64,000 nt of DNA from Schmidtea polychroa (taxonomy: Eukaryota), in NCBI GenBank assembly GCA_044892525.1, contig CM097885.1:4900001-4964000 (forward strand). The letters are read 5' to 3'. A program made the translations under genes and the position numbers. The stretch's first letter is position 1, and each line of letters opens with the position of its first letter. Of this stretch, positions 79 to 50,613 are shown one piece after another. The notes beneath the pieces were generated by a model. That model was not told the DNA's origin. It saw only the letters and a program-made list of their open reading frames with translations, and did not search any database.

Positions 79-1084
79 ATTCTTATGAATATTTATCTCT
101 CCCTTATTATGTGACTAAATTTCCTTTTTTTTTGATTGTCAACGGATCGATTTGGGTGCATAGAAATTATTTGTTTGGCTAATTCATTCCGGGAGATTAT
201 CAAGGATAATTCTGTGTATTGGGGGAAATTGGGATAAATCCTACAAGGAGAGAGACGACAAGAAATATCGATCACAACTGCTGGAAACGGTTCATTAACT
301 CCGTTTCAACAAATACTAGAATGAAACCTGACCGTAATCCAATAGAAGGGCAAATATTTAACACTGCTCAGTGTGAGAAATTGTTTTTCTCTGCCTTAGA
401 TGTGCCAATTGAGCTTGCAATTCTATTTTTATTGTTTTCCATTCCGTCAATTAAAATTTAATATTCAACTTTTGGCATAGTTTTGTTTCCTATCTGATTT
501 CTGGTAACCGTGCTATTATTATGTGCAAACGCATTTTCAAGTTCCTCATTGTTCTGTCTATGTACCTCACAGTTCGCCACTTACAGAATAATTAATGGAA
601 TCAAATGAGCCAATTTAACTCAGTATGAATTTGTTAGCGAGTGTCTCGCCTCACTAATCTCCAATATTAACAATTGTAGGTAATAATAACCTTGCAATGA
701 ATACGACAACATGTTTATTACCCCATAAATTAAACTGATTATAATTTGAGGATGGAATAATTCACAGGAATTTTGCAGAAAAGGGGGGGGGATTTTTTAA
801 CATTTGATTAGAAGGTAGTTAGGAGCCCACTGCAACAATTACCCCCCCCCCTAGAAAAAAAAATTGTTGCGACTCACATTTTTTGTTGCAACTTTTTATT
901 ACGCAATTGTTCCACACTATAGTGAGGGGGTCTCGATGGTCCTGGGATTTTCAATACAAAAAAATTTGAAAATTTAAATGGAAATTTTTTTTTTAAGTTA
1001 ATTTTAAATGTAAAATTTTTTAAATACAAATTTCAAAGTTAATTTCAATGAAATATTTTTCAAAGTCAAATGAAAATTTTAATG

Positions 1085-1146
<62 letters not shown>

Positions 1147-2276
1147 TAATAATAATGTAATAATAATAATCATGTAATAATCATGTATTTTTAACTAGGT
1201 GCTAACAAATAAATAAATACTTACAACATGATACCACATACTAACTAAATCTCAATCAACCAAGTACTAACAACCAACTAAATCTTCTTCATTGTATCTT
1301 ATGAAATGCTTTTTAAATTAACTTTTTATATGTCTTCAAAAATATGTTTAATTACAATTAATAGAAAACCTTTTCAAAATGTCTAAATTTAACAAAAATG
1401 TTGATTTTCATCAAAAAATGAATAATTGTCAACTCATCACCACATGGAATTCAAAATAATTTAAATTACAATGAAAGACTAATGAATTCTAATTTACAAA
1501 ACATTCTTCTTTTAATTGATAACTTATTATTGCAAAGTAAAAATCACATTCAATAAATACTTATTGTTGATCAGTTTTATTATATATACTCTGAGTTTAT
1601 CCGACAGGATGTTTTGACCCCCTAAGGGTACTGGTCGTAAGGGTATTAGTCGTAAAGGTACTATTCGTAAAGGTATTAGTCGTAAGTATACTGGTTAATT
1701 AACTTAAAAAATATTTCATAAAAATTTTCATTAAAAATTATCTTAAAAATTATTCCATAAAAATTTCTATTAAAAAATTTTTCATTAAAATTAACTTAAA
1801 AAATTTTACATTTAAAATTAACTTAAAAAAAATTTCCATTTAAATTTTCATTAAGTTTTTTTCAATCTTTTGATAATAAATTTAAAAATCTTAGTTTAAT
1901 TTTACTTTAATTTACTTTAATTTACTCATTTAGCTTTAATTTAAAATTTAAACCATTGTTTTCTTTAATTTAATTTTTTGAACCTTAATTTACTAATTTA
2001 AAATTTTTAATTTTAATTTACTTAATTTTTCTTTATTACTTTAATTTTACACCATAATTTACTTAACAACTAATTATAACCCTTTTTTACATATTTAACC
2101 AATAATTTCATGTGGTCATTGATTAATTGACGAAGATTTGCATCTAAAATTAACATTGGAAATCCCAGAAAACTTTCATCTTAAATTGACTTTAACTTTA
2201 ATATTTTAGACCATTAATTACTTAAATTTTTAAATTAGACATTAATTTACTTATTTAACCAATAATTTCATGTGGT

Positions 2277-3130
2277 CATCTGGTTGTAAGTATCTAGTTA
2301 ACAGTGCTTAGTACTAGGTATCTTGTCCTTGGTTGTTAGTACTTGGTTGATGATGATTAGTACCTGGTTGTTGACGGTTGTGAGTACTTGGTATCTAGTT
2401 GTTAGTTGGTTGTCTTTGGTTGTTAGTACTTAGTAGTTGGTTGATAATGCTTAGTACCTGGTTGATGTTGATTGTATGTACTTGGTAGGTGGTAGTTAGT
2501 TGTTAGTAACTAGTTGTAGGTTGTATGTACTTGGTAGGTGGTTGTTGGTACTAAGTTGTTGGTTGTTGTTGGTTGTTAGTACTTGGTAGGTGGTTGTAGG
2601 TACTTGGTTGATAATGCTTAGTACCTGGTTGTTTTCGGTTGTGAGTAGTTGGTATCAGGTAACTGGTTGTAAGTATCTGGTTGTTTGAGAGTTAGTTAGT
2701 GCGTGGTATCTAGTTGTAAGTACTTGGTAGCATGTAACTGGTTGTTAGTATCTAGTTGTAGGTATCTGGTTGATGTTGGTTGTATGTACTTGGTAACAGG
2801 TAACATGTTGTTAGTACTTGGTATCAGGTAACATGTTGTAAGTACTTGGTAGCAGGTAACTGGTTGTTAGTAACTAGTTGTAAGTACTTAGTAGCAGGTA
2901 GCTAGTTGTTAGCTGATTGTTTTTGGTTGTTAGTACTTGGTATCTAGTACCTAGTTAGCTGGTTGTAGCTAGTTAATGGGTAGGTGGTAGCTAGTTGTTA
3001 GCTGGTTGTAGCTAGTTAATGGGTAAGTGGTTGTAGGTACTTAGTAGTTGGTAACTGGTTGTTGGTATCTAGTTGTTAATACATGTTCGTAAGTTACTGG
3101 TTGTTGGTACTAAGTTGTTGGTTTGTTGTT
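2277..3130 (+). repeat. Degenerate TG-rich, strand-asymmetric tandem array inside the Polinton-like element
   Basis: Recurrent TGGTTGT(T/A)AGTACTTGGTA-like units; an inverted copy of part of it lies at ~1195-1285. Confidence 0.8.
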
Positions 3131-3399
3131 GAATTATTATTAAAATTTGTCTTTGAAAAATATTTTATAAAAATTTTCATGAAAAATTATCTTAAAAATT
3201 TCCATCTAAAATTATCATTGAAAATTATTCCATTAAAATTTCCATTAAAAATTACCATTGAAAAATATTTCATAAAAATTTCCATTAAAAATTATCTTAA
3301 AAATTATTCTATTAAAATTTCCATTAAAAAATATTCATAAAAAATTTTCATTAAAAAATTTCAATTCTCAAACACCTTCTATTATTTTGTAATTAAATT

Positions 3400-4240
3400 T
3401 TAAAATCTTACTTTAATTTACTTATTTAAAATTTTTTACCATTGATTACTTAATTTAAAAATTATTACTTTAATTTACTTATTTAAAATTTTTTACCATT
3501 GATTACTTAATTTAAAATTTGGACCTTAATTAACTTTAATTTAATTTTTAGAACCTTAATTTACTTTAATTTAAAAATTTGGACCATTATTTACTGTAAT
3601 TTAATTTTTAAGAACCATAATTTACTGTAATTTAAAAATTTGAGCCATAATTTACTGTAATTTAATTTTTTAGGACCATAATTTACTGTAATTCAAAAAT
3701 TTGGACCATTATTTACTGTAATTGAAAAATTTACCACGCTTTTTTTTAGTGTAGACCACCTTTTTCTATTGAAATTCTCAGGACCAAGGAGACCCACCTT
3801 AATTTACTTTGAATATTCTATGCTTTTTTATTGAGACCGCCTTTTTGTATTGAAAATATCCTGAGACCTTAAATTACCATGCTTTTTTATTGAAGACTGC
3901 CTTTTTCTATTGAAATTCTCAGGACCAAGGAGACCCACCTTAATTTAATTCGAAAAATCCATGCTTTTTATTGATAGTCGGATTTTTGTATTGAAAAATT
4001 TTTTTTTTGTATTGAAAATCCCAGGACCATCGTTTTTGTATTGAAAAAAAATTTTTTGTATTGAAAATCCCCGGACCATCGAGACCCCCTCACTATAGTG
4101 TGAATAATCCTTGGCTTTTTTATTGAAGACCGCCTTTTTGTATTGAAAAAATTTTTTTTTGTATTGAAAATCCCAGGACCATCGTTTTTGTATTGAAAAA
4201 AATTTTTTGTATTGAAAATCCCAGGACCATCGAGACCCCC
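3400..4240 (+). repeat. Subterminal tandem repeats (~32-bp GGACCATAATTTACTGTAATT units, then ~60-120-bp TTTTTGTATTGAAAATCCCAGGACCATCG units)
   Basis: Directly visible repeated units running into the right TIR. Confidence 0.8.
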
Positions 4241-4852
4241 TCACTATAGTGTGGAACAATTGCGTAATAAAAAGTTGCAACAAAAAATGTGAGTTGCAAC
4301 AATTTTTTTTTCTAGGGGGAGGGGGTAATTGTTGCAGTGGGCTCCTAACTACCTACTTTGATTTTATAACATGCATGCGATAATATGCTAATTTCTGTTT
4401 GTTAGGCCTTTCTGTTGATGATTTCACCACGGAATTTATCTTATTTCACAATTGTTGACATTATTTCACATTGATTGTTGATTTGTCTGTCCGGAGGCCG
4501 TTGAATCCCATGCGAGTCTGTATGCGTACGCGAGTATGTGCGAGTGACAATTTCAGATTCATTTTACAGATGTTGCCAATGTATTTCATCCATTATCTTT
4601 TATCCCAGTTGTTCTGCTTTGTTCGAATGTTTCCTACTTGGCAAATATTGGTTTACGCGTGAGTCAATTGCTGCTTGTCGTCGTAGTCGTCGTCTGTCAC
4701 CACAAATAGGAAATTATCCCACTTAATCCCATTATATTTTTTCCATTATTTTAAATATTAATACAAAAAAAAAATTGAGATTGTTAAATAATTTGTTGTT
4801 AATAATTATGTAAAGCATAATAAATAATAAATAATCGATTTTCACACTTAAG

Positions 4853-15360: not shown

Positions 15361-17077
15361 AGATTAAGAGAAAGATTATATAACTAGTTAACCAGTACAC
15401 GTTGAGACAATCTCTCATGAAACTTCAACAATCTGAAAGAAATGAAGATAAACCTACTGTTATTTATTAAGGTCTAATTGGGCGTTAATTAAGATCCGTA
15501 ATATATGAAAGTAAAGGTAGAGTAACAGTGTCGAGTATATACACATTTAACACAAATACGAAAATTAATTCAGTTAGAAGCCATTCTTTAATGTATTTCA
15601 TGATAGAGGTGCAAAAAAATTAATATTAGTAAATGCATAAATGAACAACAATACTCATAAAAAAATAATAAAAAATGCAGAAATGTAGATATTAATTGAA
15701 GTCTTTGTAGTGCCTCTGAAAAGCACTTTTATCAATCTAATAATTGAACTAAAAATATATTATTAAATTAATTAAATTAAAATAAAAAATTAAAAACAAT
15801 TGTTTAAATAATATTTCACTTTTTTCGAAAATCATCATCAAATTCAATTTAAAATGTCTAACAAAGTCACTGAAGTCGAATAAGTTGAAGAATCATCAAA
15901 TCGAGTCAAAATCAATGAATCAAATATGTCAGAAATACAGGAAACAGAAGCCTTTATCTTATTCACAATGATATCTCTGATGATGTTCAAGATCTTCAAC
16001 AATGTCAATTATAATAAATTCTTTGTTCAAATTAATTGTATGTCTCTACAGTCTTTACATCAAACTTTATAAATAATATGCATTGTAATGATAGAGAAAT
16101 GCTAATTAAATTGAGCATCAAATAAATTCATTAATACATCCAAATTATTTACTAGGCATATACGAATTTTACTTAGCATAAATCAACTTAGGTTTTATTT
16201 AAAATTACTTAGCACTTAAATAGGTGCCATTTTTAATCCTTTTATGTTAATAATATCTATACTAAAATTAAAACTTCGTATTTATTATGAACTTCAGGTC
16301 ATTTATGATTAATGTTTGAAAACAGTAAGATTTATTAAATTCATAACCAACGTTTCCTTTAATTTTATTTTTCACTGTGCAATAATTATCGGAGCCCGAA
16401 TTTTGAAATTTGAATTGTTATTATAAAAATCATAATTTTGTGCGTAAAAGAAAATATGCACAATTTATGGATTTTCTAAGCAAATGAGCATGTTAAAATA
16501 TCCCACTTCTGACAACATCGTAATAAAATATAATTTAATATCAAATCTGTTGATTCTATTTCTTCAGCAACTTCAATGATTTTGTTGGACATACTTGAAT
16601 TTGATTTTTGAATTTCGAAAAATAAAGTTAATAAATGTATTTTATTTACTTAATATAATGTTTAATTTTAATATTTTAATATCTTATAAATAATAAAAAA
16701 ATTGTATGATAATTCTGATATATTGTGACCAGCATACGTAAATTAAAAGAAATATTGATTAATTATAACTAATTAAATGAACAATTAATTTATTTTATTT
16801 TATTTTTATTAATTATATTCTTCAACTAATTTTTCAGAATATTAAAATTTGTATTATTATTTCTCATTGAAACAATTCTCAATTGTTATTAATTAGTTTT
16901 CTTAGTTGATAATTGTTGTATCAATAAACAATATATTGTTGGGTAAATATTGGTTGGTACCCTTGGCAGGTTACCCAACCCTGATATTTGCAAGATTTGA
17001 GCAAAATCGAAACTTGTAACTAAATATCAGTATCAATATTAACTTAATATACATTATGACGTAGTAAAAATATTTAC

Positions 17078-17318
17078 CTTAATAGGACATCCTTCATGTT
17101 GAAGCCTTTGTCTCGGGTCCGTATGTTGGACATTGAAATGACTCAAAAAGCTTAGACCACCAATGCAACATATTTCTTGATGTTTAGATTGTTTTGCCGT
17201 ATTAACGAAGGCACAGTTGTCACTAGATATATACATTGTAGGCCCTAAAAGCGATGATATTTTGAATGCAATAGGCTCTCCGTAAGTTACTTTTTTCCCG
17301 GTTTTATCACTGTCAATA
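17078..17318 (-). CDS. CFAP161: CFAP161 exon 4
   Basis: IDSDKTGKKVTYGEPIAFK...MYISSDNCAFVNTAKQSKHQEI...DPRQRLQHEGCPIK; GT-AG boundaries with consistent phases. Confidence 0.9.
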
Positions 17319-17502
17319 CTGTGTTAAAAATAATAATTAAAACAAATTGAAGTTAATTTAATATATATCTCATTTCGTAGATAATTATTTCAGGTGATTC
17401 GCAATTTTGGAACACTTAATGAAATATTTGCGGAACACCGCGTCAAAAACGTATATGTATGACTCTGTTCATTAAAAATGCAAAAAATAAAATAATCTAA
17501 AC

Positions 17503-17759
17503 CAGTGATGAACAAAATTTTTCGGACTGCGAACCCCTTCTTTAAATAAAAATTATCATTTGACCCCACCTAGCAAAATTTATAGAAAAAATCAAAAAAG
17601 TAATCAAAAAAAAGTAAAAATTTAAAATAAAAATGTTATACAAAATTTAAAGAATATTTTTATTTTATATTTCAAAATGATAAAACTAACTTTTTCAACC
17701 CCTCTGGAGTTTTTCGGGAACCCCTATGAAGGTCGCGACCCACACTTTGAGTATCACTG
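17503..17759. mobile_element. hAT-type MITE, 257 bp
   Basis: Termini CAGTGATG.../...TATCACTG; perfect 8-bp TSD ATCTAAAC (17495-17502, 17760-17767). Confidence 0.88.
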
Positions 17760-18676
17760 ATCTAAACAACCAAAAAGATTACATTTTTTTAGGTTGCACA
17801 CCAGTGATAATAAAAGGCTAATATATTGAGGACCTGTCCATCAAGCAATCAAAAAACAGTGAAGAAGATATATATCTTATATCTTAACAATGAGTCAAAA
17901 CAATAAAATTAATGTAATATCCCAAAATAGTGTACTATATCAACTACCTTATACAAAATGAAACCAATTCATATAATCAACTGAAGAATTACAAGCTCAA
18001 ATTACTGATAATACCAATATTCAAAATTCATAATTTATTATAGTCCGACTCAACCCGACCCGGCGTTTAGTAAAATAATATAGCTCAATAATAAAGACTG
18101 TATTAGACGAAAGCATATTCATCAAGAATTTTGTCTTAGATTTTCAAGGTGATTTTTCTCTTCTTACCAATTTGAAATAACATTTCTAAGATTTTTACTC
18201 TTTAACCACGATATTGTAGTTTCTTCTCTTCGACCAACTGGCATTTGTCCAACAGTGTCGTTTACTTTTATATTGTTGTTCATCCTGCGTAATCGGATAA
18301 TTGAATTAGGCGTCGGCCAAAAAAACAAAGTAATTGAACAGGCGCCCTCACCTATTTGTTCAAAATTCTCGTTTCGCTAATTCATTTTATCGATATGCAC
18401 ATTCAAACACATTTTGAGCCACTTTATACGAACACCAAAAATAAAAAAAAATATGGCACCCAGAAAGATTAAGCATTTTTCTTCGTTTTTCTCATAATTC
18501 TCAATTAAGTAATCAAAATTGACAGATAAGGCTTTATATTAAAAAAGAGTGGGCAAATAATTAATTTGATCTTAGCTCATTATTGAGGTAATTTTTGATT
18601 TGTTTTAATTAATAATTATTTTTCAAAATATTATTATTTTCAAGGTCATATTATTATTTTCAAAATATTATTATTA

Positions 18677-18736
<60 letters not shown>

Positions 18737-19094
18737 CTATTATTATTATTTGCGAAGTTCTTATTATTTTATTGTCAATGTTTTATTATTATTTACTTAA
18801 ATATTCATAAAACTAAATTTCAGCATCAATTTACGATTTTCAATATTTGATAATTATTTTCAGGAACATTTTCATAATTTTAACGTTTTCATCATTTTCA
18901 CGATTTTCAACATTTTCAGGAACATTTTCATCATTTTCAACGTTTTCTTTATTTTCATCATTTTCAACATTTTCATAATTTTCACGATTTTCAATATTTT
19001 CATGATTATTATCTTCAAAATTCTTATTTTATTTATAAAATATCATTTTCAAAATTATTTTCAAATTTCTTATTATTTATTTTCAAAGTATATT

Positions 19095-19125
<31 letters not shown>

Positions 19126-20522
19126 TTATTATTATATATACTCCTAGTCTATCCGATAAAATATTTTGTCCCCCTATGGGTACTGCTCACACTCAACAGG
19201 TTGCAAGGGTACTAGTCATGCTTATTATTATTGTTATACAATATGATGTTACTTAGACATTTGAAGGTTCAACCATGGTTACAATTTCTACATTTTGAAA
19301 ACGCTAATTTGATTGGCTATCTCAATTTTTATAAATGTAAAAACAAAAGTAATTTAGTTTATACGATAAGATATTTCTCCCTCTATGGGTACTGCTCGTA
19401 AGGGTACTGCTCGTAAGGGTACTGGTCGTAAAGGCACGAAATCCCACGAAAACTTACTCAAATATAACCGAAAGACATAAAACAACAAAAACAAATTCGA
19501 TTAAATACTTTATAGCAATTGCATTGATACATCAAAATGTCAGATAATATTTATAAATTAACTAAAAACTACACAAAAATACTATATTACCTAAGAATTC
19601 AGTTATGTTTCTAGTTAAATAATTGAAATAATTAGTATTACTATCAACTATATAAAAAATTGTTATGAGTCCAAGAATATTTTAATTAAATGGTATAGCC
19701 AAATACATGGATTTCTAACTAAATTTGTAAATTTATCTGGAAATATTTTACTTAAGAAATTGCTATATATTTAAAATAACCATGTACCTTTCACTAAATT
19801 GCCTAAGAATTTGCTATATGGTATTGTTAAATAAAATAATCATAATAAAATTAAAAATAATAATATTATGAAAAAATAATATAATTGTATGACTAATAAA
19901 TTTGCAATACAAGTGCATAATTAACAAAGACTTTGCAATAAATGGACATGATTAACAAAGACACTAGAAATATTATCTTTACATTTTGTCGAAGATGATT
20001 ATGGCAGTAATATCAGAGGAGAATCAATGGACAGAAGAAAAGCATCATTATGATTTATAATAATTGTAAATATAATTGTATATGTAATTGTAAATTTTCA
20101 TATATATAAATAACACTATATAAAAAAATTAATACAAAAATTAAAACAAAATGAATATGTTTTAATCAAAAAGTATTACAATAAAACAATAAATTTATAA
20201 AAACAAATTAAAACATTTATTTCCGAAACAATAATAACCAATACTACTGTAACACATAATTTCAATTTTAAAATATTGGTTAGGGTTTCTTCTACTTTTC
20301 GAGCATCTACATGGTTCTTGCGAAGATCTTTTTCCCATTTTGATGAACTCATGGGTATCCCTTCATCATATCATCACTATTTGGTAGTTGCGCCCAATAT
20401 ATTTAATTACCAAGATGATTTCATATTATTCAATGTTTGAAAATTTCCTACATTATAGTACCGTCATTATGTATGGTAATAATTCATTTGACTTTGATAT
20501 TGTATTGATTTGTATTGAGAAC

Positions 20523-21179
20523 TTACATGTATATATTATGATGTTCATTAATCATTGTTGAACAGGCTTGACAATTGTGAACATTCTTCTCGTGACACTT
20601 AGAACAAACAATTACGTGACCACACGGTAAATACAAAACCGAAACTTGATTTTCTTTACAAATTGAACAAGTTAAATACCTTTTCTTAACATCGTTCAGT
20701 TTTTTCCGTTAGCTTATTTTCAATCAAATCGGCTTTTGCTATCCATTCATAAATCAATCTACTATATCCCGGTTTCAACCTTAAATACATGCAACTCCAA
20801 AAGTATTCATTCAGTGAATCGTTGTTTACCACTGTTTTTTTTCTAAATACATTAAATAACTAGATAACTTCAAAATGAATTTATCATAATTAAATAAATC
20901 AATCAAATATTGAATAGAGGAATGTTTAAAAATTTTTAAAATATTTATGATTTCCTTATCAGTGTAAGTATCATGATTATTTATAAAATCTTCAACTGTG
21001 TTGAAAAATTTCAATGAACGCTTATCTTCGGAATAGGTTGGACTTAATATTTCCTTATTTCTAGTAGGATTTCCTTGCTATAAATGACATATATAAAAAT
21101 ATTGACAAAATAATAAAGTTACCAAATGTGTTTTGTGATTTATACATTCATATTCAACAGTGTTACTTGTTGAAATCAT
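20523..21179 (-). pseudogene. Intron-containing gene with C-terminal IAP/MDM-type C3HC4 RING; at least one A-run frameshift
   Basis: ATG 21179, exon 21123-21179, 45-bp GT-AG intron 21078-21122, possible second 50-bp intron ~20780-20829. Ends LTCSICKENQVSVLYLPCGHVIVCSKCHEKNVHNCQACSTMINEHHNIYM*. One extra A in the A6 run at 20700-20705. Confidence 0.75.
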
Positions 21180-21194
21180 CAGTAAATTTCTTAA

Positions 21195-21250
21195 TAACTA
21201 AATTACTTTTGTTTTTACATTTATAACGATTGAGATAGCCAATCAAATTA
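21195..21250 (-). promoter_or_regulatory. Putative Pol II promoter of the RING gene (CCAAT box, TATAAA, Inr-like TTAGTT)
   Basis: Minus strand reads TTTGATTGGCTA...TATAAATG...(about 20 nt)...TTAGTT, then ATG shortly after; copies at ~19310-19360 and ~25130-25180. Confidence 0.5.
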
Positions 21251-21414
21251 GAGTTTTCAAAATGTAGAAATTGTAACCATGGTTGAACCTTCAAATGTCT
21301 AAGTAACATCATATTGTATAACAATAATAATAAACATGACTAGTACCCTTGCAACCTGTTGAGTGTGAACAGTACCCATAGGGGGACAAAATATTTTGTC
21401 GGATAGACTAGGAG

Positions 21415-21474
<60 letters not shown>

Positions 21475-24400
21475 GTAATAATATTGATAAAAACTTTGAA
21501 AATATTTTGAAAATAATTTTTTGAAAATAATACTTTGAAAAATATTCGATGAAAAGTTCCTGAAATAATCATGAAAATGTTGAAAATCGTGAAAATATTG
21601 AAAATGTAAAAATTATTAAAATAATCATGCAAATGATGAAAATGTTGAAAATCATGTAATTGACGTAGAAATTAAGTTTATAAATATTTAAGTAAATAAT
21701 AATAATGAAACTTCTAAATTAAAATAATAATTAGACCTGTGCAAATAATAATAATTCTTTGAAAATAATAGTTTGAAAAATATTTGATGAAAATGTTCCT
21801 GAAATAATCATGAAAATGCTGAAAATCGTGAAAATGTTGAAAATCATGAAAATGTTGAAAATCGTGAAAATATTGAAAATGTAGAAAATTATGAAAATAA
21901 TGAAAATTATTAAAATATTCATGTAAATGATCAAAATGTTGAAAATCATGAAATTGACGCAGATTAAATTGATTAAAACATATTCATTTTGTTTTAATTT
22001 TTGTATTAATTTTTTTATATAGTGTTATTTATATATATGAAAATTTACAATTACATATACAATTATATTTACAATTATTATAAATCATAATGATGCTTTT
22101 CTTCTGTCCATTGATTCTCCTCTGATATTACTGCCATAATCATCTTCGACAAAATGTAAAGATAATATTTCTAGTGTCTTTGTTAATCATGTCCATTTAT
22201 TGCAAAGTCTTTGTTAATTATGCACTTGTATTGCAAATTTATTAGTCATACAATTATATTATTTTTTCATAATATTATTATTTTTAATTTTATTATGATT
22301 ATTTTATTTAACAATACCATATAGCAAATTCTTAGGCAATTTAGTGAAAGGTACATGGTTATTTTAAATATATAGCAATTTCTTAAGTAAAATATTTCCA
22401 GATAAATTTACAAATTTAGTTAGAAATCCATGTATTTGGCTATACCATTTAATTAAAATATTCTTGGACTCATAACAATTTTTTATATAGTTGATAGTAA
22501 TACTAATTATTTCAATTATTTAACTAGAAACATAACTGAATTCTTAGGTAATATAGTATTTTTGTGTAGTTTTTAGTTAATTTATAAATATTATCTGACA
22601 TTTTGATGTATCAATGCAATATACAACAAATTAATCAATAAAAACCTTAGCATATTGTAAGTTTTTATATATAGTCTGAATTTATCCGACAATATATTTT
22701 GTCCCCCTGTGTGTATTTGTCGTAAGGGTACTGCTTACATTCAACATGTCGCAAGGGTATATTAATTAAAGCACGTGTATATTAGTTAAAAATTCTTAGG
22801 CAATTTAGTGAGAAATGGATGATCATAGATATCAGAAATTCGTGAATATTTTGAATATTTTGAATGTAACTTACTGAATTCTCATTTCGAGCGACTAATT
22901 TATTGGTTAACTTTGTCATGTTTTGTCATTTAAAATAATATTTAGCAAAAGGTAAGATATGAATATTTAGTATTTCATAGGTAATTTATTCATGTAATGT
23001 TCATTACAATAGTTAATATAACTTCGTGAGAAATGCATAATCATTAATAACAACATATATTCATTGATAATTTTGGTAGAAAGTCTTTATCATTTGGAGT
23101 AAATTTCTGTCTTTGTTCGAGTCAAAAAGGAGTCATAATAGAAACATGATCATTTGGTTATCATTTAACCAATTAAGGTGCTTATTAGTTAGAAATATAG
23201 GGTTACAATTCTTTTCTAATTTAATGAGATGATCATTGGGTGTAATATATCTTTGTGAGAAATATATGGTTAACATTTTTAAATAGGGATTTTTGAGTAA
23301 CTTTTACCAAAACAGGGATATTTTGTGCGATCAATTTATGAATATTGCTTAATTTCCTCATTTTTAGTCATTTAGCAAAATATCATTGAAAGATTTATCC
23401 ATCCGATAACAATATTCCTTCAATAGATTTTACCCTTAATATTCAACCGATTTAATTTCTAGAAATCTAATTAAAATCATAAAATTCCTTCAATAAAGAT
23501 CAATTTTTTTTAGCTGTTATCGATTTCCAACTTTTAAGTAAATATCTCTCAAGTTTTGTCACTGATATCCTCACAATGAATAAAATAACTTCTTAAATAA
23601 AATAATTTAAAGAAATAACCTTTGATATCAATCCCAATTAATTCTAAAGATTTAAAATATTTCATTGTCAAAACCAAGTAAATAAATCATTAACCCTAAA
23701 CGACTTAATAAAACAGTGGATAATTAATAAAGAACTGGTTCTAAAACATAAATCTAAATTACTGTGCCATAACATTCATCACGACCTAATAAACCTCTAA
23801 AACGATATAATTTCACAGTAATTATTATTAATTCATAGCTAAATACTGACTATTTCCCTTGAAAATTTGATATTTTACCAATAAGAACATTGTCGATTTA
23901 AATAGAGATTTCAAACATTTCCGCCTTAACCGATCACTCACTAAATATTTCTACTCCTTTAAAAATACCCCCTTTAAAATCATATATTACCATCTTAACT
24001 GAACCTTCACTAAATCCGAACGACTTTAATATATCAGCCCTTTAATATATCAATTCTCTTAAAATCCATAGAAAATTCTTCAAAATATGAATTTTATTTA
24101 ATTGTTACCAACATTCTTCCATTGAAATAATTTATTATCTAAATTCATGTAGTAAAAGCCCACTAAAAGATCAAAATTCACTAAAATCAATATTTTCTAC
24201 AAATATTTCACCACATTTACCATCAAATACCTAACTAGAGATGAAATATATTGATTGATCATAATTCTTCATCGATTCAGCCAATTATATAGCAATTATA
24301 ATGTGATATATTTTTCAAAATCACAAATTTCAGTATATTTTACAATAATTTTCAAGTAGATTTCAAATATATCAACATGATAAAATTAGCTGGTTTCAAC

Positions 24401-25363
24401 TTTAGATTTTCAATATTTAAAAGTTCATCAATATTCTTAGAAAATATATGAAAAATTATTTTATCAAATTCAATATCATTACAAAGTCATCATAAAAATT
24501 AAATAATAATCACTTGATTATTGTAAAAACTAATTTAACTGTCATTAAAAATAATTTTTATTTAAAATTAAATTTAAAAACAAGTCAATAAAATATAGCA
24601 AATTATCAAGAAATTAATTAAATTTGTCTTAGAATTAACAATAAAACCTTAAATTTTTAAATATTCTTTCAATTATTCACAAAAAGGTTAATAATAATGT
24701 TAGTAAAATCCCGCTAACTCTAAAAATTACCAATGAATTTAATGCTCAATAATAACCAAAAATTTGCCTAAATGAAATCATTACAACACACCAGTGCCTT
24801 TACGACCAGTACCCTTACGAGCCGTACCCATAGAGGGAGAAAATATCTTGATAATAATTAGTAAGCGTAAAGTCGAAAGATAATTTTAATAACACATAGA
24901 TAAAATTAACAATATTATTCTCAGGTGGTAAGAATCTTCATTAAAGTTAGGAAATTATAAGAACTAGCAATTGCTATAAAGTATTTAATCGAATTTGTTT
25001 TTGTTGTTTTATGTCTTTCGGTTATATTTGAGTAAGTTTTCGTGGGATTTCGTGCCTTTACGACCAGTACCCTTACGAGCAGTACCCTTACGAGCAGTAC
25101 CCATAGAGGGAGAAATATCTTATCGTATAAACTAAATTACTTTTGTTTTTACATTTATAAAAATTGAGATAGCCAATCAAATTAGCGTTTTCAAAATGTA
25201 GAAATTGTAACCATGGTTGAACCTTCAAATGTCTAAGTAACATCATATTGTATAACAATAATAATAAGCATGACTAGTACCCTTGCAACCTGTTGAGTGT
25301 GAGCAGTACCCATAGGGGGACAAAATATTTTATCGGATAGACTAGGAGTATATATAATAATAA

Positions 25364-25428
<65 letters not shown>

Positions 25429-25770
25429 TACTTTGAAAATAAATAATAAGAAATTTGAAAATAATTTTGAAAATGATATTTTATAAATAAAATAAGAATT
25501 TTGAAGATAATAATCATGAAAATATTGAAAATCGTGAAAATTATGAAAATGTTGAAAATGATGAAAATAAAGAAAACGTTGAAAATGATGAAAACCGTGA
25601 AAATATTGAAAATGATGAAAACGTTAAAATTATGAAAATGTTCCTGAAAATAATTATCAAATATTGAAAATCGTAAATTGATGCTGAAATTAAGTTTTAT
25701 GAATATTTAAGTAAATAATAATAAAACATTGACAATAAAATAATAAGAACTTCGCAAATAATAATAATAG

Positions 25771-25848
<78 letters not shown>

Positions 25849-26169
25849 TAATAATAATATTTTGAAAATAATAATATGACCTTGAAAATAATAATATTTT
25901 GAAAAATAATAATATGACCTTGAAAATAATAATATTTTGAAAAATAATAATATGACCTTGAAAATAATAAAATAATAATTATAAAGTTATAATAATAATA
26001 TTAATACCCTTGCGACATGTTGAATGTGTCCAGTACCCTTACGACAAATACACATAGGTGGACAGAATATTTTGTCGGATAAACTCTGACTATATAATAA
26101 TAATAATATTGATTAAAACTTTGAAAATAATAATTTTGAAAATAACATCTTCCGCGCGGGCGGTAATAT

Positions 26170-26570: not shown

Positions 26571-27129
26571 TAAACCGCTGGAACAAAAATAGATGTCTTT
26601 TTTACTAAAAATAGAACGACCTTGGCGAGTCATCGGATCAATGATCGGATCAAAAATGTTACTAAAAATATATTAAAGGTGTTACTAAAAATAGATGTCT
26701 TTATTACTAAAAATAGAACGACCTTGGTGACTCAGCGACTGAGTCATTGTCTTTGTTTAAATTACCTTGATAATTAAAACTTGATGATAATAATAATATT
26801 AATAATAAATTTTGAAAATATCTTCGAAAATAATAATAATAATAATAAATAATATTGAAATTAATAATAATAAATAATAATAATACATTTGATAGTAATA
26901 AATAATAAATCCCATGGGCGCGTCATTGTCTTTGTTCTGAAAATGATGAGTTTGTTCAAGAAATAAATGAGTCATCGATGAGTACTTTTTTATTACCGTT
27001 TATTTGATATGTATATTATAAGGTTTGAAAAATTTAAACCTTGGATCCTTGGACTCTTTGACCTTCAAACTTGGACCATCATACTCATCTTTGAATTACC
27101 TTTTGTTTGATATGTATATTATAAGTTTT

Positions 27130-27495
27130 CTAATTAGAAGATTTTACCAAGAGATTTATACAATTCCTGAATTCAATTAACGGTAATTTATAATTTGAAG
27201 TGTATTTATTTATTACCTGCAAATAAATTATTTTTATAGGGACCTCATTACAATTAACAATGTCAGCTAAAAAACAAACGAATAGAAAAGCTATTTCTTT
27301 GGAAGTTAAAATCAAAATTTTGGATAGACTAGCCACTGTAGAAGGTGCCACTTCTGTAGGAAAATATTTTAATTTAAAATAATCTACCATAAGAACAATA
27401 AAAAAAATCCTCTACTTTTATATGGACACCATATCTTTTTTTACGCGTATTTTCGGGGAACGTATCTATCGCGTAAAAACAGAAATAGGTATATA
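27130..27495 (+). mobile_element. Short Tigger/pogo deletion derivative nested in the Polinton-like end
   Basis: MSAKKQTNRKAISLEVKIKILDRLATVEGATSVGKYFNLK*STIRTIKK from 27260 (Tigger-type HTH); TIR-like end CGCGTAAAAACAGAAATAGGTA-TA. Confidence 0.65.
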
Positions 27496-28403
27496 TATAT
27501 ATATTATAATGTTTGAAAAAAAAATTCGAAGGTTATTGACCAACCATACACCTTCGAGGGTATTACCATCATACTTACCTCTCAAATACCTTTGGATTGA
27601 TATACATATTATAAGGTTTGAAAAATATTCGAAGGTTTTGTACCCTTTGAAGGCCGAGGACCTACCATACACCTTCAAGGGTATGACCATCATATTAACC
27701 TCTCAAATACCTTTCGAATGATACCCTTGGGGGAAGGTTTGACCTTATTTGACCTTTGGAAAGTTAAATATGACCTTGGCCTTAAAAATATGACCTTGAC
27801 CTTAAAATATGACATTGGCCTTGAATGAGTCATCGGATGAGTCACATGACCTTGAATGGGTCATCGTCTTTGTTTCAATGACCTTAATGAGTCATATGTC
27901 TTTGTTTAAAATTTGACCTTGAAAAAAAATTCTTTAATGGCGGGGGGTAGGGGGTATGTCTTTGTCCCAGAGGGCCGCTGGTTTAGTGGGCCGCTGGTTT
28001 AGTGGGCCGCTATCCCTCTACTTGAGTAGTATAATTAATAACAAAAAGTGTAAAAGAAACCACATCATAAAGATTAGAAAGTGGAGAACAAGTTTATGGA
28101 AACAATTGGAGAAAGGTGTCTGTTGCTACTACCTAAATTTAACAATTTTATAACATAATTATCATCTTTTAACAATTAATAATAATAGTTTACAGAGTAC
28201 TCTAAGACGCCAACCCAAGATAGACATCGATCATACCTTTCTAAGCTAGAATATTATAATAATAAACTTATACCGACCCCAGTAACGTCGCGTCTTGAAT
28301 TATGTGAGACCTGATCATACAGCTACCTTATAACTGTCAAAGAAGTAAATGAGAGATATGAATGATTGACACAACTCTATAATGGTATCAATGATTACGT
28401 TAC

Positions 28404-28918
28404 CTTACGATTTCAAATACATTTCTGGACAACGGGTCAAGCTTAAAAGAAGCAGTGCATGTACTCGGATCCGGCAATTCGTTTCGAAAATACAACATCT
28501 CATCTGCAGCATCGATACTGATTACAGTGGGTGGTCTTAGAGTAATTCTTTGTAGCCTTACCATGTTCGGATCGGACCCTACATTGATTATTTGAATGAG
28601 GTCGCCGAAACGAACAAATCCATCAGCAATGGTACTCGGAGATGCCTGTGAATTACATTTATGAACTGTTTTGTAAATGACTTTCAATTTTTACCGACTG
28701 AGACATTTTCTTCAATAAAGAGCCCATCTTTTGAATCATCAACTGGCCGCTGTCTCGCTTGGCCAGAAAGTCTTTGATTATTTCCTAAACCGAAACTTTT
28801 ATTTGCTAATATCTTCCTTCTGAATTCATACCTCTTCCAGGATTCGATTGTCAAACCAGCTGTCTATGAGCACCTTGGAGTTGTACTGATTTTTGATCTG
28901 AGGAATTTCACACGACAT
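28404..28918 (-). CDS. CFAP161: CFAP161 exons 1-3 (28832-28918, 28695-28784, 28404-28645); whole gene 13627-28918, 906-nt CDS, 301 aa
   Basis: MSCEIPQIKNQYNSKVLIDSWFDNRILEE/EIIKDFLAKRDSGQLMIQK.../ASPSTIADGFVRFGDLIQIIN...PLSRNVFEIVS matches the CFAP161 N-terminus pattern (Y...V.IGNW.ED..LEEE..KDFL.KRD.G.L.IQ; DG.I.YGD; RN.F.I.S); all six exons splice in phase. Confidence 0.92.
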
Positions 28919-37340: not shown

Positions 37341-37826
37341 AGCATCCATAAGATTTTATTTTAATTTCTATTTTGACTATGATGATTTTGAATTCCTTCC
37401 TAATCTGTTCAAATAAATTCTAATTTCAAATAAAATTATTTAAATTATTATATTTTGATTTTCATATTTTATGAAAAGATTTATTTTTATATTTTGATCT
37501 ATTTTTAAATTTGTATTTTCCGTTTAAAAATGATATTTAAATTTCCACCAAAATTTTACTTTTTCTTATCAAATTGTAATTTAAATAAATTTGTAAGATT
37601 TAATATAAATGAGAAAAACGCTGAAAATTAACATTAATAATATTTCGAATTGAGCTCAAAGCTAAATACAATATTTATAAAATGTTTGTTTATTTACATC
37701 AAAATGCAAATTATAAATATTGAAATTGTAAAAGTCAGAGGAAATAATCAATATAATAAGTATGATTTATAAATATGATTTGTAAAATATTGAAATATTT
37801 TGATAATTTTGTTAATTTTAGATAAA

Positions 37827-38299
37827 ATGTTTGCAAGCGTATGGGAAATGATGAAGAGAAATAAATTTAAATTTGATAATGAAATCAGCAATGAATTGAT
37901 ATGCAGAATTTGCAAATGTTTAATGATAAAGGCTTGCCAAGCTCCTTGCGGTTGTCGCTTTTGTTCTGATTGCATTGAGCATTATTTGGTTGGAAAGGAT
38001 AAATTCTGTCCAGGAGCAGAAAAACATTGCGGAAAGAAAATGATAAATTTCAATAAAGATGTTTATGAAGATCATGCGATCAATTTAAGGATCTCAGAAG
38101 TGATAGTGAAATGCCCAATGCCAAATTGTCAATTCAAAGATGAATTAGAGGTGATGGAGAGCCACGTGAGAACATGCAACAAGCAGCTAATCAGATGTCC
38201 ATTTAATAGTATTGGATACAAAATGAATGAGGTGGAGAAGGACGAAATGAAAGTCGATCTCAATGAGAACGCTGAATGTAATAGCAAATTATTGATTGT
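37827..38299 (+). pseudogene. TRAF-like gene copy, 3'-truncated (RING and TRAF Zn finger only)
   Basis: ELICRICKCLMIKACQAPCGCRFCSDCI...VKCPMPNCQF...HVRTC; near-identical to 60227 ff. including ~400 bp upstream; homology stops at ~38299. Confidence 0.8.
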
Positions 38300-41620: not shown

Positions 41621-43291
41621 TGTGAGGCTGCTTTGCACTCAGTTGTTGATAAGTTGATGGAATAGGATGAATTCTTATAAAAAAAGGTTTTAACGTGGAA
41701 CTACTTTCATTTATTGAAATATGCTGAATTAAGTTTTTATATTGGTGCCGCTCCACCATATTTGTTTCTCAGGGAAATATTAGCTACTGTCTAAGTCAGA
41801 ACAATTATTAAAGTTATATTTAGTGATCAAGTGATCTTGTTTCTACATGAGTAGATTCATAAATAAAGAAAATAAAATAAGTCCAAGCAACGTATATAAG
41901 AATAGAACCGACGTAAAGTCACTTATTGAATGTTAGTGTATGTAGAAAGTAAAAGCTGGCTACATCAGTAGTAGACCTCCATTTCCCTATTGTGTACCTA
42001 AAAACTAATCTATGTTTATATATTTAATTGCTCCCAATGCAGAATGACCTTAAATCAGCCACCAAGAAATACCATTTTGCCACCATAATTAAAATAAAAA
42101 TTATTTTCATTATCATTTAAATTGTTAAATTTCCGCGTTAGGGCCAGAAACAACAAAAGACACAAAAGAATCATTAGAAATATTAATTTTAATTATCTAT
42201 TTAATATTAAAAATTTGGACAATAATAAATGAAATTTATAAATTGCGCTTTAATATTAGCTTGTTTACAATTTTGTTTAAATAATCATTTATTCTGCTTT
42301 ATACTTGTCGGGTTGCGCTCTACAAAATGGATATTCTTTTCTAATATTTATTATTACAAACTCCTGGGTTCCCGATGCAGGAATGCTGACAATTGGCAGC
42401 GGTCCAGTTGAACCAATGAAACCATCACAAATAATGACCAACCAATCAGAATATATTAAAAACAAATTATTCCGCTTATACTGGCAAATCCACATGCAAA
42501 TCCTTTTGCCAAAGCTGTTGATTATATTACCTTCAAGTTACTAGTATGGATAAGGAGGAAAATATAAAAATCAAGTTAAGTCAAAGGAGTAAAGAAAAGA
42601 GGTGATTATTGTTGCGGGACGTGCAAAACCAAAGTGGTTACAGAGAAACTTATTGAATAGTCAGAATAGGCATTTTATAACGATATTTGACGTTTTTAAA
42701 TAGTAGATTATACGAATTTCAATACAAATATACGCTGAGTGTTTTTTATGTAATTGTTTTCACAGATCACGTGGATTCAGAAACACTGACATTAATATTT
42801 ATCTAATTAAAACTCAACACTATAATATATAGGAAAAGGGAAATCAAATATCAAAATACAATTACATCACATTATGTAGCATTATTGTTATGGAACCTTA
42901 AGACAACTCTCTCCATCAACAAATAGAACATGCTCCAAGCCTTTATCATGGACCCTCATATTGTAGCCTATTTATTCATAAATTATTTTCTAATAAAATG
43001 ACTTTATATAGCCAATATCTTCCTTCTCTCTTTTCATAGAAAATTTCCTATGTCCCCGGTCCTAATTCATTTAAAAGAATAACGATCTATGGACAGATAT
43101 TAATATGATAAATGTCAACTCTTGCTGCGATAAAGGTCAGAGTAAGTGCCATTTCTACAATAAATATGACAGATTTTCTATATTAAGCACTCCATCATTC
43201 TCAATAATGCGCAATTACAGCACAACTAGACCTATTGTTATAGAAATTGCTATATATATATATTCACACCAGCCTGATTTGAAGGGTGAAA

Positions 43292-44812
43292 ATGGACCTA
43301 AGTTTCTATGTTAATTGTATCTTGATTTTTCTATTTATCTGCTGCTGGATCTTCAAGAAAGATTCGGTGCCGGAAGGATTGAAAGAAGTTCCAACTGAAT
43401 ATGGTTTGCCTTTAATTGGGATGATCCATAAAATTGAACCTACTCTGCCCCATTTATTATTGAAAGTCGGTAAAAAACTGGGACCGATATTCAGCATAAA
43501 ATTAGGAATGAGAAAGGTATTCGTGCTGAACAGTTACGACTCGATCAAAAAGGCTCTAGTAGATGATGGAAAAAACTTCTCAGGCCGATGGAAAACAAAA
43601 TATATTTTCTCGGATTTTATTCATGATTCCGGAATCCTTTTCACTGATGGACCTTTATGGGAAACTCAAAGGTCTTTTGTCTTGAAGGTTCTACGAGATT
43701 TTGGTTTCGGGAGACGCATATCTGTTGAAATTGTTCAAGATGAATGTTCAGAATTAGTTGATGAATTAGATTCCCAATTGGGTCAGATTGTTAACTTTGC
43801 TGAATTGATCCCAATCTATTCTATGAATATAATATCCAAATTCATAACAAACAGACGGTACACGAGAGACGACCCAACGATTCAATTAATAGAAGAATCT
43901 GCAAGACAAATGCTTAAAAACAAAGATATAGCGCAATTCATATTATTAATGTTTCCCATTTTTGAGCAGTCCACTTTGATTGCAAAATTATTGCAACTTA
44001 CATCTTCATGGAAGTCCTTTATTTCAGTTCAGAATTACTTTGTAGAAGAAATTGAGATGCATCGAACATCTCTTGATTTTAATTCGGAAGGAGAAGACCT
44101 AATTGACCGGTTCCTAATAATGCAACACCAACTGATGCAATCAACTGGAAACGTCGAGACCTTCGTTGATTGGCAAATGATTCGAAATGCCACTGAACTA
44201 TTTATCGCAGGATCGGAAACAAGTTCAACAACGCTTGTTTGGAGTTGCCTTTTCATGTCTAGACATCTTGATATTCAGAAAAAGGTTCATGATGAGATAA
44301 TGGAAATAATCGGGAAAGAACGCCTACCAACGATGGATGATAAAAAATCTCTGAATTATACTCAAGCTGTAATGGATGAAATATTGAGATTAAGCTCGGT
44401 GGTTCCTTTGTCTTTATTCCACAGAACCTTCCAAGACACCAATTTAAATGGATATTACATTCCTAAAAATTCAATGATCTTCCCTAACTTGTTTGCATGC
44501 CATGTGGATCCGGATCTCTGGAAGAATCCGATGACTTTTTATCCAGAACACTTCCTCAATTTGGAAAGTGACGGGACGTTAAATTACCGACCAAGAGAGG
44601 AACTAATTCCATTTGGTATTGGGAAACGGCAGTGCCTTGGAGAGTCACTTGCAAGAATAGAATTCTTTATTTTCTTTGTGAGAATGATGCAATTATTCAA
44701 AATAGGTTTCACAGAAGAGATAAGTGACGAACAATATTCCAAAGTTCTAATCAGTGAGGATGCGCCTGTCAAGAGTTGTAATATTACTAATTATATATTT
44801 AACAGATATTAG
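43292..44812 (+). CDS. Cytochrome P450, clan 2 (CYP2-like), single exon, ~506 aa
   Basis: N-terminal TM anchor, GLPLIG, WETQR, AGSETS, EILR, PEHF, PFGIGKRQCLGESLA heme motif. Confidence 0.96.
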   Translation: MDLSFYVNCILIFLFICCWIFKKDSVPEGLKEVPTEYGLPLIGMIHKIEPTLPHLLLKVGKKLGPIFSIKLGMRKVFVLNSYDSIKKALVDDGKNFSGRWKTKYIFSDFIHDSGILFTDGPLWETQRSFVLKVLRDFGFGRRISVEIVQDECSELVDELDSQLGQIVNFAELIPIYSMNIISKFITNRRYTRDDPTIQLIEESARQMLKNKDIAQFILLMFPIFEQSTLIAKLLQLTSSWKSFISVQNYFVEEIEMHRTSLDFNSEGEDLIDRFLIMQHQLMQSTGNVETFVDWQMIRNATELFIAGSETSSTTLVWSCLFMSRHLDIQKKVHDEIMEIIGKERLPTMDDKKSLNYTQAVMDEILRLSSVVPLSLFHRTFQDTNLNGYYIPKNSMIFPNLFACHVDPDLWKNPMTFYPEHFLNLESDGTLNYRPREELIPFGIGKRQCLGESLARIEFFIFFVRMMQLFKIGFTEEISDEQYSKVLISEDAPVKSCNITNYIFNRY

Positions 44813-47756: not shown

Positions 47757-49359
47757 CATGTTTGTTTACCAACTTTTCTTTTATACAAATTGTGACTAGA
47801 TAGCAGCACGTTTTTGTTTCTAAACCATTTACATCATGATCTCATTAAATTACTCGATATTAACCACCTAAATAAACATTTTATATACAATTTCTAATTA
47901 AAAAGATTGTAAATAAATCTGAGTGAATAAAATAAAAAAAGGCTTCAGCAAATGATAAAACAACAAAAATAGAAACATGCATTATTGATTATAACAAAGT
48001 AACATCAATCACAAAATCAGAATTTTCATTGATTACTGCAAGTTCTTTGGTAAAATATTTCATCAGTTCTCTCTTGCGCTTTTCTAGGCCAGCTTCAAAT
48101 GATTTACTATTTTCTTTTTCTCCTCCATAGAATGCCGCATTCCCCCTTTCATTACTGATTCTCTAAAATTAGCAATTACTTTCCTGGAGGCTGTGCAGCC
48201 GAATGTCAGCACAAATTTTCTTCAAATCAATATAAACTTCAGGGAATTGACTTGCTTCCTCAAATGTGCTTTTCTCTTCCTCAAATCGCTTCTAAATCTC
48301 CACACCTTTAGGACTTATTGATTCTTGAACCCTGCCTTTATCTCGATGAGTTTCTGATCCATGTAATCATTGACATTAAGATGATGGCCAACTTGATCCG
48401 TTAAATTCTGAATGGCTTGACAATGTTCCACAGATTCCTCCTGCAATGTCAGACAAATCCTCTCATCTTCATTCAAATACTTGACAGCCATTCGATTCTC
48501 GAATTCCAACAATTTTATATCACTTTTCTATCAACTAAATAGCTTCGGTTTATATCAATTTACCCATACCAAAACTTCAGAGTTCCTTTTTAAATCTTCG
48601 TTTTGTTTTGTGTTCCTCTAATTCCTCTCCTCTGATTTGGGTCTTCTCTTCAATAACAGATATCACGTTTGATATAAGGTCGCAAATGACCATCGTAATT
48701 CAGCAGATATTCGTGATTTCTTGACGAATTTCTCATTTGACTAAGCCTGGGAACTGGAATGAGAGGTCAATTATCTACGAAGTACGACAAAGTCTAAGTT
48801 TATTTAAAAGTATGTCAGTTTTGTTTTGATATCCTACACAATTAATATTAGCTCCAATGGATGTTGCCAAACATTTATATCATATAAATGATGATTATTA
48901 TAATGATAATACAATAACCATTATCACATTATAATAACAAAAGAAACATGGTCAAGATGAAAGGATTTGGTTATCAAGTCAGTCCTTATTGCTGTATGAC
49001 AAATACAACAAATGATACAAAGAATAGCCAAGATTAACGAGAAAGTGATGCTAAGGAAGCAGTTACAAATGTCCTATCAATGGAATAAATTATTGTGGAA
49101 TTTTGCCATAAAATAATCTTATCGAAATCTACATAAATCTTATATAATCTATTTTGAATCAATCGTAAGCTAGATTCAATCCGTGATGAATTGTTGAGGC
49201 GATTTGTCAGCGCTTATATTCGGATGAATTTTAATTGGATTATTTCTTTCACATTAATTATAAATTTAATTATAATAAATATAATAATAATATCGGATGG
49301 AAGGCGCTGGGGAAGATAATGACAATGATTATCACAATAATTATGTCATATAATAAATC

Positions 49360-49397
<38 letters not shown>

Positions 49398-49464
49398 GGC
49401 AAATAAAAAGTCAGATCAAAAGCCAAAATAAATCAATTTTTTATTGAAATAATTTTTTAATTTT

Positions 49465-49755
49465 TCATAATTTTTCAATTCTGCACCTGAATATTTTATT
49501 GACTTGCTCATATAAATGCTGTCATTTACTGGATCGATCACATCGATTGTTTGAACGGCCAATCCAATTGCTCATCATTTGCCCCACGCATCAAACAGAA
49601 ATCAACCTCAACCCAATTACATCCAATCCTCACCGCCATTCACATTTTGTAACCGATTGGCACGGAATAAAATGCCTCGCTGTAAATCAATTTATTTCTC
49701 TTGTGAAAATGTATCGATTTGCCATTCAAAAAATCCATAATTTATATATCTGCCT
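49465..49755 (-). pseudogene. TRAF-like MATH-exon fragment
   Basis: Reverse complement matches 61235-61635 with internal deletions. Confidence 0.8.
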
Positions 49756-50613
49756 GGTTGTCTTATTGTCTTATATTTTTTATATTTTCAGGATTTGAAG
49801 ATAAATTTTGGTTTTTATTAATAATTAAAATTCATTCATAAAATTTATCAAATTTCTGAATTTAAATATTAATTTACATGAAATCTTTTTTGTTTTAATA
49901 ATATTGTATTTGAAAATTTAGCGAATGAGAAAGTGAATAAATTTATGAAATGTTACATTATTTAATATTAAATCATTTCATTAGCTATTAAAAAGGATCT
50001 CATTAGAAATGCAAATATTATTATCATTATTATATTAGCAATAATATTATTAGCAAATCGGACACGAGACCTTTAAGAGATCCAAATTTCATGATAGATG
50101 CAAAGCAAAAATTAATTAAAGCAATTCATTTAATGATTAAAAGAATGCGTAACAGAATTTGATAGAGTTTAGAAAGCACCGATTGACCTCATCGCATCGA
50201 CAGCTCTCATTTTGGTAAACTTACCCAAACTGATGTGAAAACAATTTGGAACATTTTATCAGTATTGTTGTTGCGGATTGCGTTGAAATGCCTCACAAAT
50301 AGCTGGCGAAGGTGAAATGTTAAGGCATTAATCAATTTGATATAAGGCAATTTTAGTATTGCATTTAGGTGCATTTTACTGCCATTCAATACAGCAATAA
50401 TTTCTCCACAACTCATATAACATCAGCAGCAGCAGCGATGGCGGGTTTCTCGTCGGTTCCATTCGTCATAGGAGCGCTTGATTTGTTGAGAATGACAATG
50501 ATTATCACAATAATTAGCTCATATAATAAATCAATAATAATAATAAGGCAAATAATAAATCAGATCAAAAGCAAAAATAAATCAATTTTTTATTGAAATG
50601 TTTTTTAAATTTG

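Follow-up and report, generated by a model that had tools for sequence, protein, structure and literature searches.

The window analysed here, a 64,000-nt stretch of Schmidtea polychroa DNA, carries on its minus strand a gene for a protein with a C-terminal RING, with the start codon at 21179 and the stop codon at 20525–20523, directly after the final residues IYM. The RING encoded by this copy matches PF13920 in a Pfam scan (E=3.5e-10, 40 bits against a cut-off of 27). A first-pass annotation had placed an ATG, a GT-AG intron of 45 bp and a C-terminal RING here; the ATG and the RING were found, as was a GT..AG segment of 45 nt behind a first exon of 57 nt. The gene sits in a 1.8-kb spacer (20170–21968) between two fully complementary arms of 652 nt, which are themselves enclosed by a second, more diverged pair (Table 1).

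Table 1. Features of the RING gene and its carrier element in the window (strand "." where none is assigned).
Feature	Position	Strand	Remarks
Outer left arm	18612..19522	.	93% complementary to 24967-25913; element stops here, no terminus found
Inner left arm	19518..20169	.	100% complementary to 21969-22620
AATAAA (20221-20216) and candidate poly(A) junction near 20197	20197..20221	-	One contig, weak hint
Exon 2, encoding the UBA-like domain, the long helix and the RING with its tail	20523..21077	-	Broken in the window copy
IAP-type C3HC4 RING, C-terminal tail and stop codon	20523..20669	-	
Second frame-breaking A-run	20700..20705	-	
Region for the UBA-like helical domain (approximate)	20758..20951	-	Corresponds to residues 23-86 of a natural relative
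First frame-breaking A-run	20835..20842	-	
Putative 45-nt GT-AG intron	21078..21122	-	Phase 0, in-frame stop at acceptor
Putative exon 1	21123..21179	-	57 nt, 19 codons
Promoter module; holds the GGGTACT-type motif that recurs in the element	21189..21420	-	
TATA box TATAAA (21225-21220)	21220..21225	-	46 nt upstream of ATG
CCAAT box (ATTGG at 21243 on the minus strand; CCAAT on the plus strand)	21239..21243	-	Inside the repeated promoter module
Inner right arm	21969..22620	.	
Right-side-only 2.35-kb segment	22621..24966	.	5-nt microhomology at bounds; two more motif units
Outer right arm	24967..25913	.	
Candidate Polinton-type end AGTAG...	27993..28022	-	19/30 letters equal to the sister-element end

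A word-index search returned P0002 and P0003, relatives of 163 and 198 aa respectively, and the three stop-free pieces of the window copy are 85, 86 and 95% identical to P0002. The first-pass annotation had invoked a second, 50-bp intron (20829–20780) and a single A-run indel. Both proposals were rejected. The supposed intron is conserved coding sequence, uninterrupted in P0002 and in four cluster members; it encodes the FW...RL helix kept throughout the family, and contigs from other copies span it. Since P0002 runs unbroken through this segment, the window copy shifts frame at two A-runs rather than at one. Contigs from other copies show length variants at the first run (42 in X1, six in X5, three in X10) and at the second (49 in X1, 15 in X5, seven in X10, two in X20), these variants being a minority of the summed depth in runs that consist of contigs of pooled copies. 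Several private substitutions accompany the two frame breaks, and the window copy as assembled is unable to make the full protein.

Exon 1 showed no detectable homology to relatives, yielding no alignment with P0003. The 45-nt segment that follows it is host-sized, as first suggested, given that two introns of the adjoining cathepsin gene measure 42 and 45 nt; the splice joint that would go with it is absent from the 15 of 36 joints listed from the contig runs, among which X10 and X20 are guessed to be RNA. A GT..YAG pair at this spacing is weak evidence alone, because a YAG follows 40–50 nt downstream at 18 of the element's 140 GTAA/GTAT/GTGA sites. We consider splicing of the putative intron plausible from the sequence, because its acceptor carries an in-frame stop, because 25 X1 contigs have a length variant within it that breaks the frame, and because exon 1 brings the predicted protein close in length to the 198-aa P0003.

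The CCAAT and TATA boxes reported earlier are present, but they are not specific to the gene, as the promoter module around them recurs at 96% identity in both outer arms (25123–25354 and 19135–19366) with no gene behind either copy. Where the arm copies stop matching the gene's promoter, a TATAAAC box occurs at 25126–25132 (plus strand) and 19363 (minus strand). Hints of expression are weak and come from two runs, X10 and X20, whose RNA origin is guessed. An untemplated T-run at 20197, 19 nt beyond the minus-strand AATAAA, was seen in a single X20 contig, and in run X10 four variants almost absent from the DNA runs hold much of the depth, all of them non-synonymous and none a stop.

The RING gene belongs to a high-copy repeat. 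The stretch 19950–21415 is covered by 18,612 X1 contigs over 1.47 kb with all 30 of 30 bins represented, a count taken without a single-copy control, and by 2,702 contigs in run X5; these contigs fall into four identity classes, from 99+% to below 90%, and cover the gene and its flanks alike. The earlier proposal of an element-borne gene is supported, in that the gene lies in a multicopy repeat with Polinton-like features and is not an ordinary single-copy host gene. Two CFAP161-like host exons on the minus strand flank the element (17057–17323, E=2e-5, and 28403–28690, E=0.21) and match consecutive parts of the profile, so that the element probably lies within a host intron of about 11 kb. 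Rfam returned two chance hits and ARAGORN none. Within the segment found on the right side only, some frames are low in stops and may be decayed genes; six-frame translations of 22761–24789 had no Pfam match, and a homologue search with one frame of the segment was empty. A look-alike stretch at 22829–22933 proved not to be a paralogue. Elsewhere in the window, Pfam RING hits mark several partly inverted and diverged copies (37434–38298, 49266–51855 and 59845–63125) of a RING gene that we take to be TRAF-like. An unbroken cytochrome P450 frame of 509 codons occupies 43283–44812, though the AT-rich host genome has many small introns, and a tandem array of a 35-bp unit with copies about 97% alike extends over 57160–58474.

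Polintons are recognised by terminal inverted repeats with AG..CT-type ends and by a 6-bp target-site duplication. A sister element at 810–4357 has AGTAG-type ends, inverted repeats that are 97% identical over 159 nt, and a 6-bp duplication, TTGATT; it looks gene-less, and it has the GGGTACT-type motif in common with the studied element. The candidate end at 28022 resembles the sister end better than does any of the window's 59 further AGTAG sites, the next best of which agrees at 17 of 30 letters. The search of the window for its partner was empty, and no left terminus was found from which a target duplication could be read; with this single candidate end, the foldback is not confirmed as a complete element bounded by terminal inverted repeats. 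The interval from the arm to the 28022 end holds a stretch (~27260–27400, plus strand) that had no Pfam hit but resembles a Tigger/pogo transposase in its N-terminal HTH. The Polinton/Maverick core comprises a protein-primed PolB and a retroviral-like integrase, according to passages of PMC6431247. Pfam found no relics of pPolB, integrase, ATPase or capsid in six frames of 17330–18612, 19430–20520, 22761–24789 and 26600–28022, and as these four stretches hold no core gene, the carrier is at most a non-autonomous derivative. The evidence for a Polinton carrier is circumstantial, and we regard such a carrier as fairly likely; by its sequence it is probably a truncated, rearranged non-autonomous derivative.

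The family to which the gene belongs was delimited by its N-terminus. When a profile of P0003, P0002 and P0006 was searched against 1.84 billion representatives, 464 matches (150 listed) passed E≤0.001. From 16 chosen hits that extended into the N-terminal part, an N-terminal profile was built, which selects short proteins. Those of the gathered proteins that match this profile at E<1e-4 constitute the family, after removal of 15 near-duplicates or fragments and of two with an incomplete RING. Family products are about 130–220 aa long, and the 20 members scored span 111–218 aa; 15 of these are profile seeds and all are related, so that counts over them are not independent. Identity in the 21-row alignment ranges from 12 to 57% (one near-copy apart) with a median of 25%. 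A tree of the RING only (57 rows) places the 20 members on one side of a branch with support of 71/89, recovered in 68% of bootstrap trees, so that this grouping on the RING alone is weakly supported. None of the 22 clusters looked up has an informative name. Viral-contig searches with P0002, A5, P0015, P0023, P0038, P0024, P0125 and the DNA motif returned either nothing or unspecific viral RING/IAP loci, and the viral loci fetched had no match to the N-terminal profile of the family. Five loci from a metagenome scan match 18 RING residues only and a genome-contig search gave two weak RING-only loci, so that none of these searches showed a family member in its genomic setting. The ESM Atlas gave RING look-alikes under 0.9 and nothing usable for the N-terminus.

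The BIR domain (PF00653) is absent from the window frame and from the 21 aligned members, as the first reading of the sequence had anticipated, in a scan that finds it in control IAPs. Many members are gene calls that were possibly cut at an intron, yet the 198-aa P0003 also has no BIR. Passages of PMC3972657 define the IAP (BIRC) family by at least one BIR domain, and for want of one the family product is not an IAP. The C-terminal RING with its hydrophobic tail, by contrast, is of the IAP type, matching PF13920 and having IAP RINGs as its nearest solved relatives.

One alternative is that the gene has a non-Polinton origin, as a truncated host IAP or as the accessory gene of another element (e.g. 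a Burro-type LTR retrotransposon) that a non-autonomous foldback family took up and multiplied. Such a capture would agree with the missing Polinton core genes in the four stretches scanned and with a promoter and intron of host type, and planarian Burro elements have BIR, RING and TRAF motifs (passages of PMC6431247). It would also agree with the gene model P0050, in which a family-like N-terminus and RING (35% identity over 140 aa to P0024) are fused to a retrotransposon gag domain, but this model may be mis-joined. The promoter, however, is embedded in the element's own repeated motif, gene and flanks are equally covered in the DNA runs, and some 20 lineages at the median identity given above share the short architecture, which goes beyond what a recent capture would lead one to expect. 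We therefore rate capture as unlikely.

An AlphaFold2 model of a family protein consists of six helices and a RING (pLDDT 90.4), and the N-terminal domain folded alone reaches a pLDDT of 89.7. A G[YF] motif in 13 of the 19 aligned rows, replaced by N-Y in the subfamily of the window copy, led us to predict an IAP-type UBA domain ahead of any structural test. Compared with 48,161 chains, the N-terminal model matched cIAP1 386–448 best (Z 5.4, rmsd 2.8, 60 aligned), followed by USP5 632–684 (Z 5.0, rmsd 2.7, 53 aligned), both of which we take to be UBA domains. The XIAP UBA scored Z 4.0, and UBA or SOUBA is named in the titles of 7 of the 50 best rows; scores in the range of 5.4 are, by the tool's own account, common among helical bundles. 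Profile-profile alignment to nine IAP pre-RING segments brought the G[YF] motifs into register with a score of 16.5, against 10.2 for the best of 40 column shuffles, and hhalign gave this match a probability of only 5.4%. Foldseek returned nothing at E≤0.001 for the N-terminal model, Pfam UBA_BIRC2-3 had no hit in any of the 21 members, and a search of PDB sequences with the N-terminal profile gave two chance-level rows. The structural and profile matches lend modest support to an IAP-type UBA domain at the N-terminus, which we consider probable. The family product is most likely a BIR-less UBA-RING protein equivalent to the C-terminal half of an IAP, in which a UBA-like domain is followed by a long helix and then by an IAP-type RING.

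The closest solved relatives of the RING by sequence profile are cIAP2, cIAP1 and XIAP (E 1.4e-15 to 3e-13). The same three are closest in fold, with an rmsd of 1.1 to the cIAP2 RING, and the set of zinc ligands is complete in the family. In RINGs, the loop-2 Pro and a hydrophobic residue in loop 1 have roles at the E2 surface, and some active RINGs do without a canonical linchpin. In cIAP1 the linchpin is Arg606, and Phe616 in the tail of the partner packs on ubiquitin in trans (passages of PMC6349121). The loop-2 Pro occurs in 0 of 20 family members, compared with 83 of 128 other RING hits and 19 of 23 viral RINGs. The linchpin Arg is found in a single member (R or K in 5/20) against 61/128 and 18/23, and a loop-1 I/V/L in five, including the Ile retained by the window's own subfamily, against 100/128 and 22/23. 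No member of the 20 combines a loop-1 I/V/L, the loop-2 Pro and a linchpin R/K, as do 50 of the 128 other hits and 16 of the 23 viral RINGs, a contrast that should be shrunk by the choice of control RINGs for their likeness to a query without these residues and that is inflated by the kinship of the members. The tail, on the other hand, is strictly kept: the aromatic residue at the position of cIAP1 Phe616 is present in all 20 members (79 of 126 other hits), as is an invariant Glu (15 of 126). Homodimer prediction that made no use of the alignment gave no answer, with a score of 0.00 and an uncertain fold. These residues fit a RING that would no longer activate E2 and would retain dimerisation, by analogy with MDMX.

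The earlier wording of a cargo E3 ligase is not supported as it stands, because the family has lost most of the residues by which IAP RINGs activate E2~ubiquitin. We consider it rather unlikely that the family protein acts alone as an active E3 ligase of the element, possibly working with a non-canonical E2 and recruiting its substrate through the N-terminal domain. The complete zinc ligands and IAP-like fold would suit such an enzyme, as would the loop-1 Ile of the window subfamily and the constant tail aromatic, which active homodimers need too. No member has all three E2 residues, however, and the E2 positions vary freely in the family, unexpected for a surface selected for any E2.

Very improbable in our judgement is a functionless passenger, in which the E2 residues would have been lost by simple decay and the gene would not be expressed. 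The frame breaks and private substitutions of the window copy point in this direction, as does the lack of a splice joint among the joints listed; against it, open frames, zinc ligands, tail and the invariant Glu have been kept among members that are 12–57% identical, a DNA-rare set of variants dominates a run guessed to be RNA without creating a stop at any of four sites checked, and an untemplated end of poly(A) type lies past the AATAAA in one contig.

We posit instead that a high-copy repeat, likely derived from a Polinton/Maverick and here a rearranged, non-autonomous foldback relic in a CFAP161-like intron, carries at this locus a broken copy of an accessory gene, the product of which would be an MDMX-like partner of IAPs. 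The gene, its RING and multicopy state, the family, the absence of BIR and the residue pattern are the parts of this proposal that we hold very firmly, while the explanation taken whole comes a little short of even odds. With the other parts granted, we lean slightly towards its mechanism, in which a ligase-weak protein resembling MDMX would pair with host IAP RINGs or act as a decoy for them. Heterodimers are known among IAP RINGs, and ubiquitin chains are ligands of UBA domains (passages of PMC3972657); inactive MDMX lends its tail to MDM2 in trans (passages of PMC7190642). By the proposed mechanism, the family RING would be poor at activating E2~ubiquitin alone while keeping its fold and dimer tail, and the protein would pair with a host IAP-type RING. 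It would then either lend its tail aromatic in trans or block the host homodimer, with the UBA-like domain meanwhile binding ubiquitin chains. The outcome might be that host IAP turnover, or IAP-dependent death or immune signalling, is retuned wherever the element is active, by an effect that may be stimulating or dominant-negative.

More broadly, and as a tentative proposal that we think unlikely to hold in full, Polinton-type viruses of invertebrates may encode a separate family of IAP-derived, BIR-less UBA-RING pseudo-ligases that retain just the dimer interface and the trans-acting tail and, as an MDMX-like subunit, hijack or poison host IAPs; a spliced form with a host-type promoter would have been amplified here to high copy number, some copies being expressed. 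The action of viral IAPs is ascribed to their BIRs (passages of PMC3972657). If the broader proposal is true, the route taken here would differ, with the BIRs and the E2 surface dropped and the UBA-like domain and dimer tail kept. It would also give a testable handle on the dealings of Polintons with host cell death and immunity. We know of no natural pseudo-ligase partner for the IAP family, and a literature search found none. If the product is an ordinary ligase, the finding reduces to another case of IAP-related cargo.

Such cargo is already known: homologues of IAP and Bcl2 are reported from adintoviruses in passages of Starrett et al. 2021 (PMC8502044). The proposal made here, like the adintoviruses, involves an IAP-related gene in an animal Polinton-type element, although the adintovirus paper gives its IAP genes one sentence and, in the supplement, the map label 'IAP' (in at least two places), and the gene described here has no BIR and may be spliced. 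The BIR-less, E2-degenerate form was not found in the literature searched. Passages of PMC8807557 and PMC8917759 contain nothing on a BIR-less UBA-RING architecture, the oyster study having pruned BIR-less proteins, and no BIR-less UBA-RING pseudo-ligase in a Polinton or other mobile element was found in a literature search with thin coverage of subscription papers and Repbase reports. Baculoviruses and other large DNA viruses likewise carry an IAP-type RING. Unlike the family, the 23 viral RINGs mostly keep the Pro (19) and the Arg (18), none matches the N-terminal profile, and BIRs were present in all three of them that were scanned with Pfam. Burro giant LTR retrotransposons offer a transposon-borne parallel, with BIR, RING, TRAF and Bcl-2-like motifs (passages of PMC6431247), whereas no LTR, gag or pol was found near the RING gene, whose carrier consists of inverted arms and an AGTAG-type end.

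Among cellular proteins, cIAP1, cIAP2 and XIAP (BIRC2/3/4) resemble the family in the RING, in what is probably a UBA-like domain placed before it and in the tail aromatic at the Phe616 position. The family differs from them in having neither BIR nor CARD, in the loss of the loop-2 Pro and linchpin Arg, in its invariant tail Glu and in being borne by a repeat. With MDMX (MDM4), the likeness is a functional analogy only. MDMX belongs to another RING subfamily (E 0.04–0.05 for MDM4, against 1e-15 for cIAP2), and the inactivity of the family RING is predicted from its residues; what the family would have in common with MDMX, in its pairing with MDM2, is an inactive RING that gives its C-terminal tail in trans (passages of PMC7190642).
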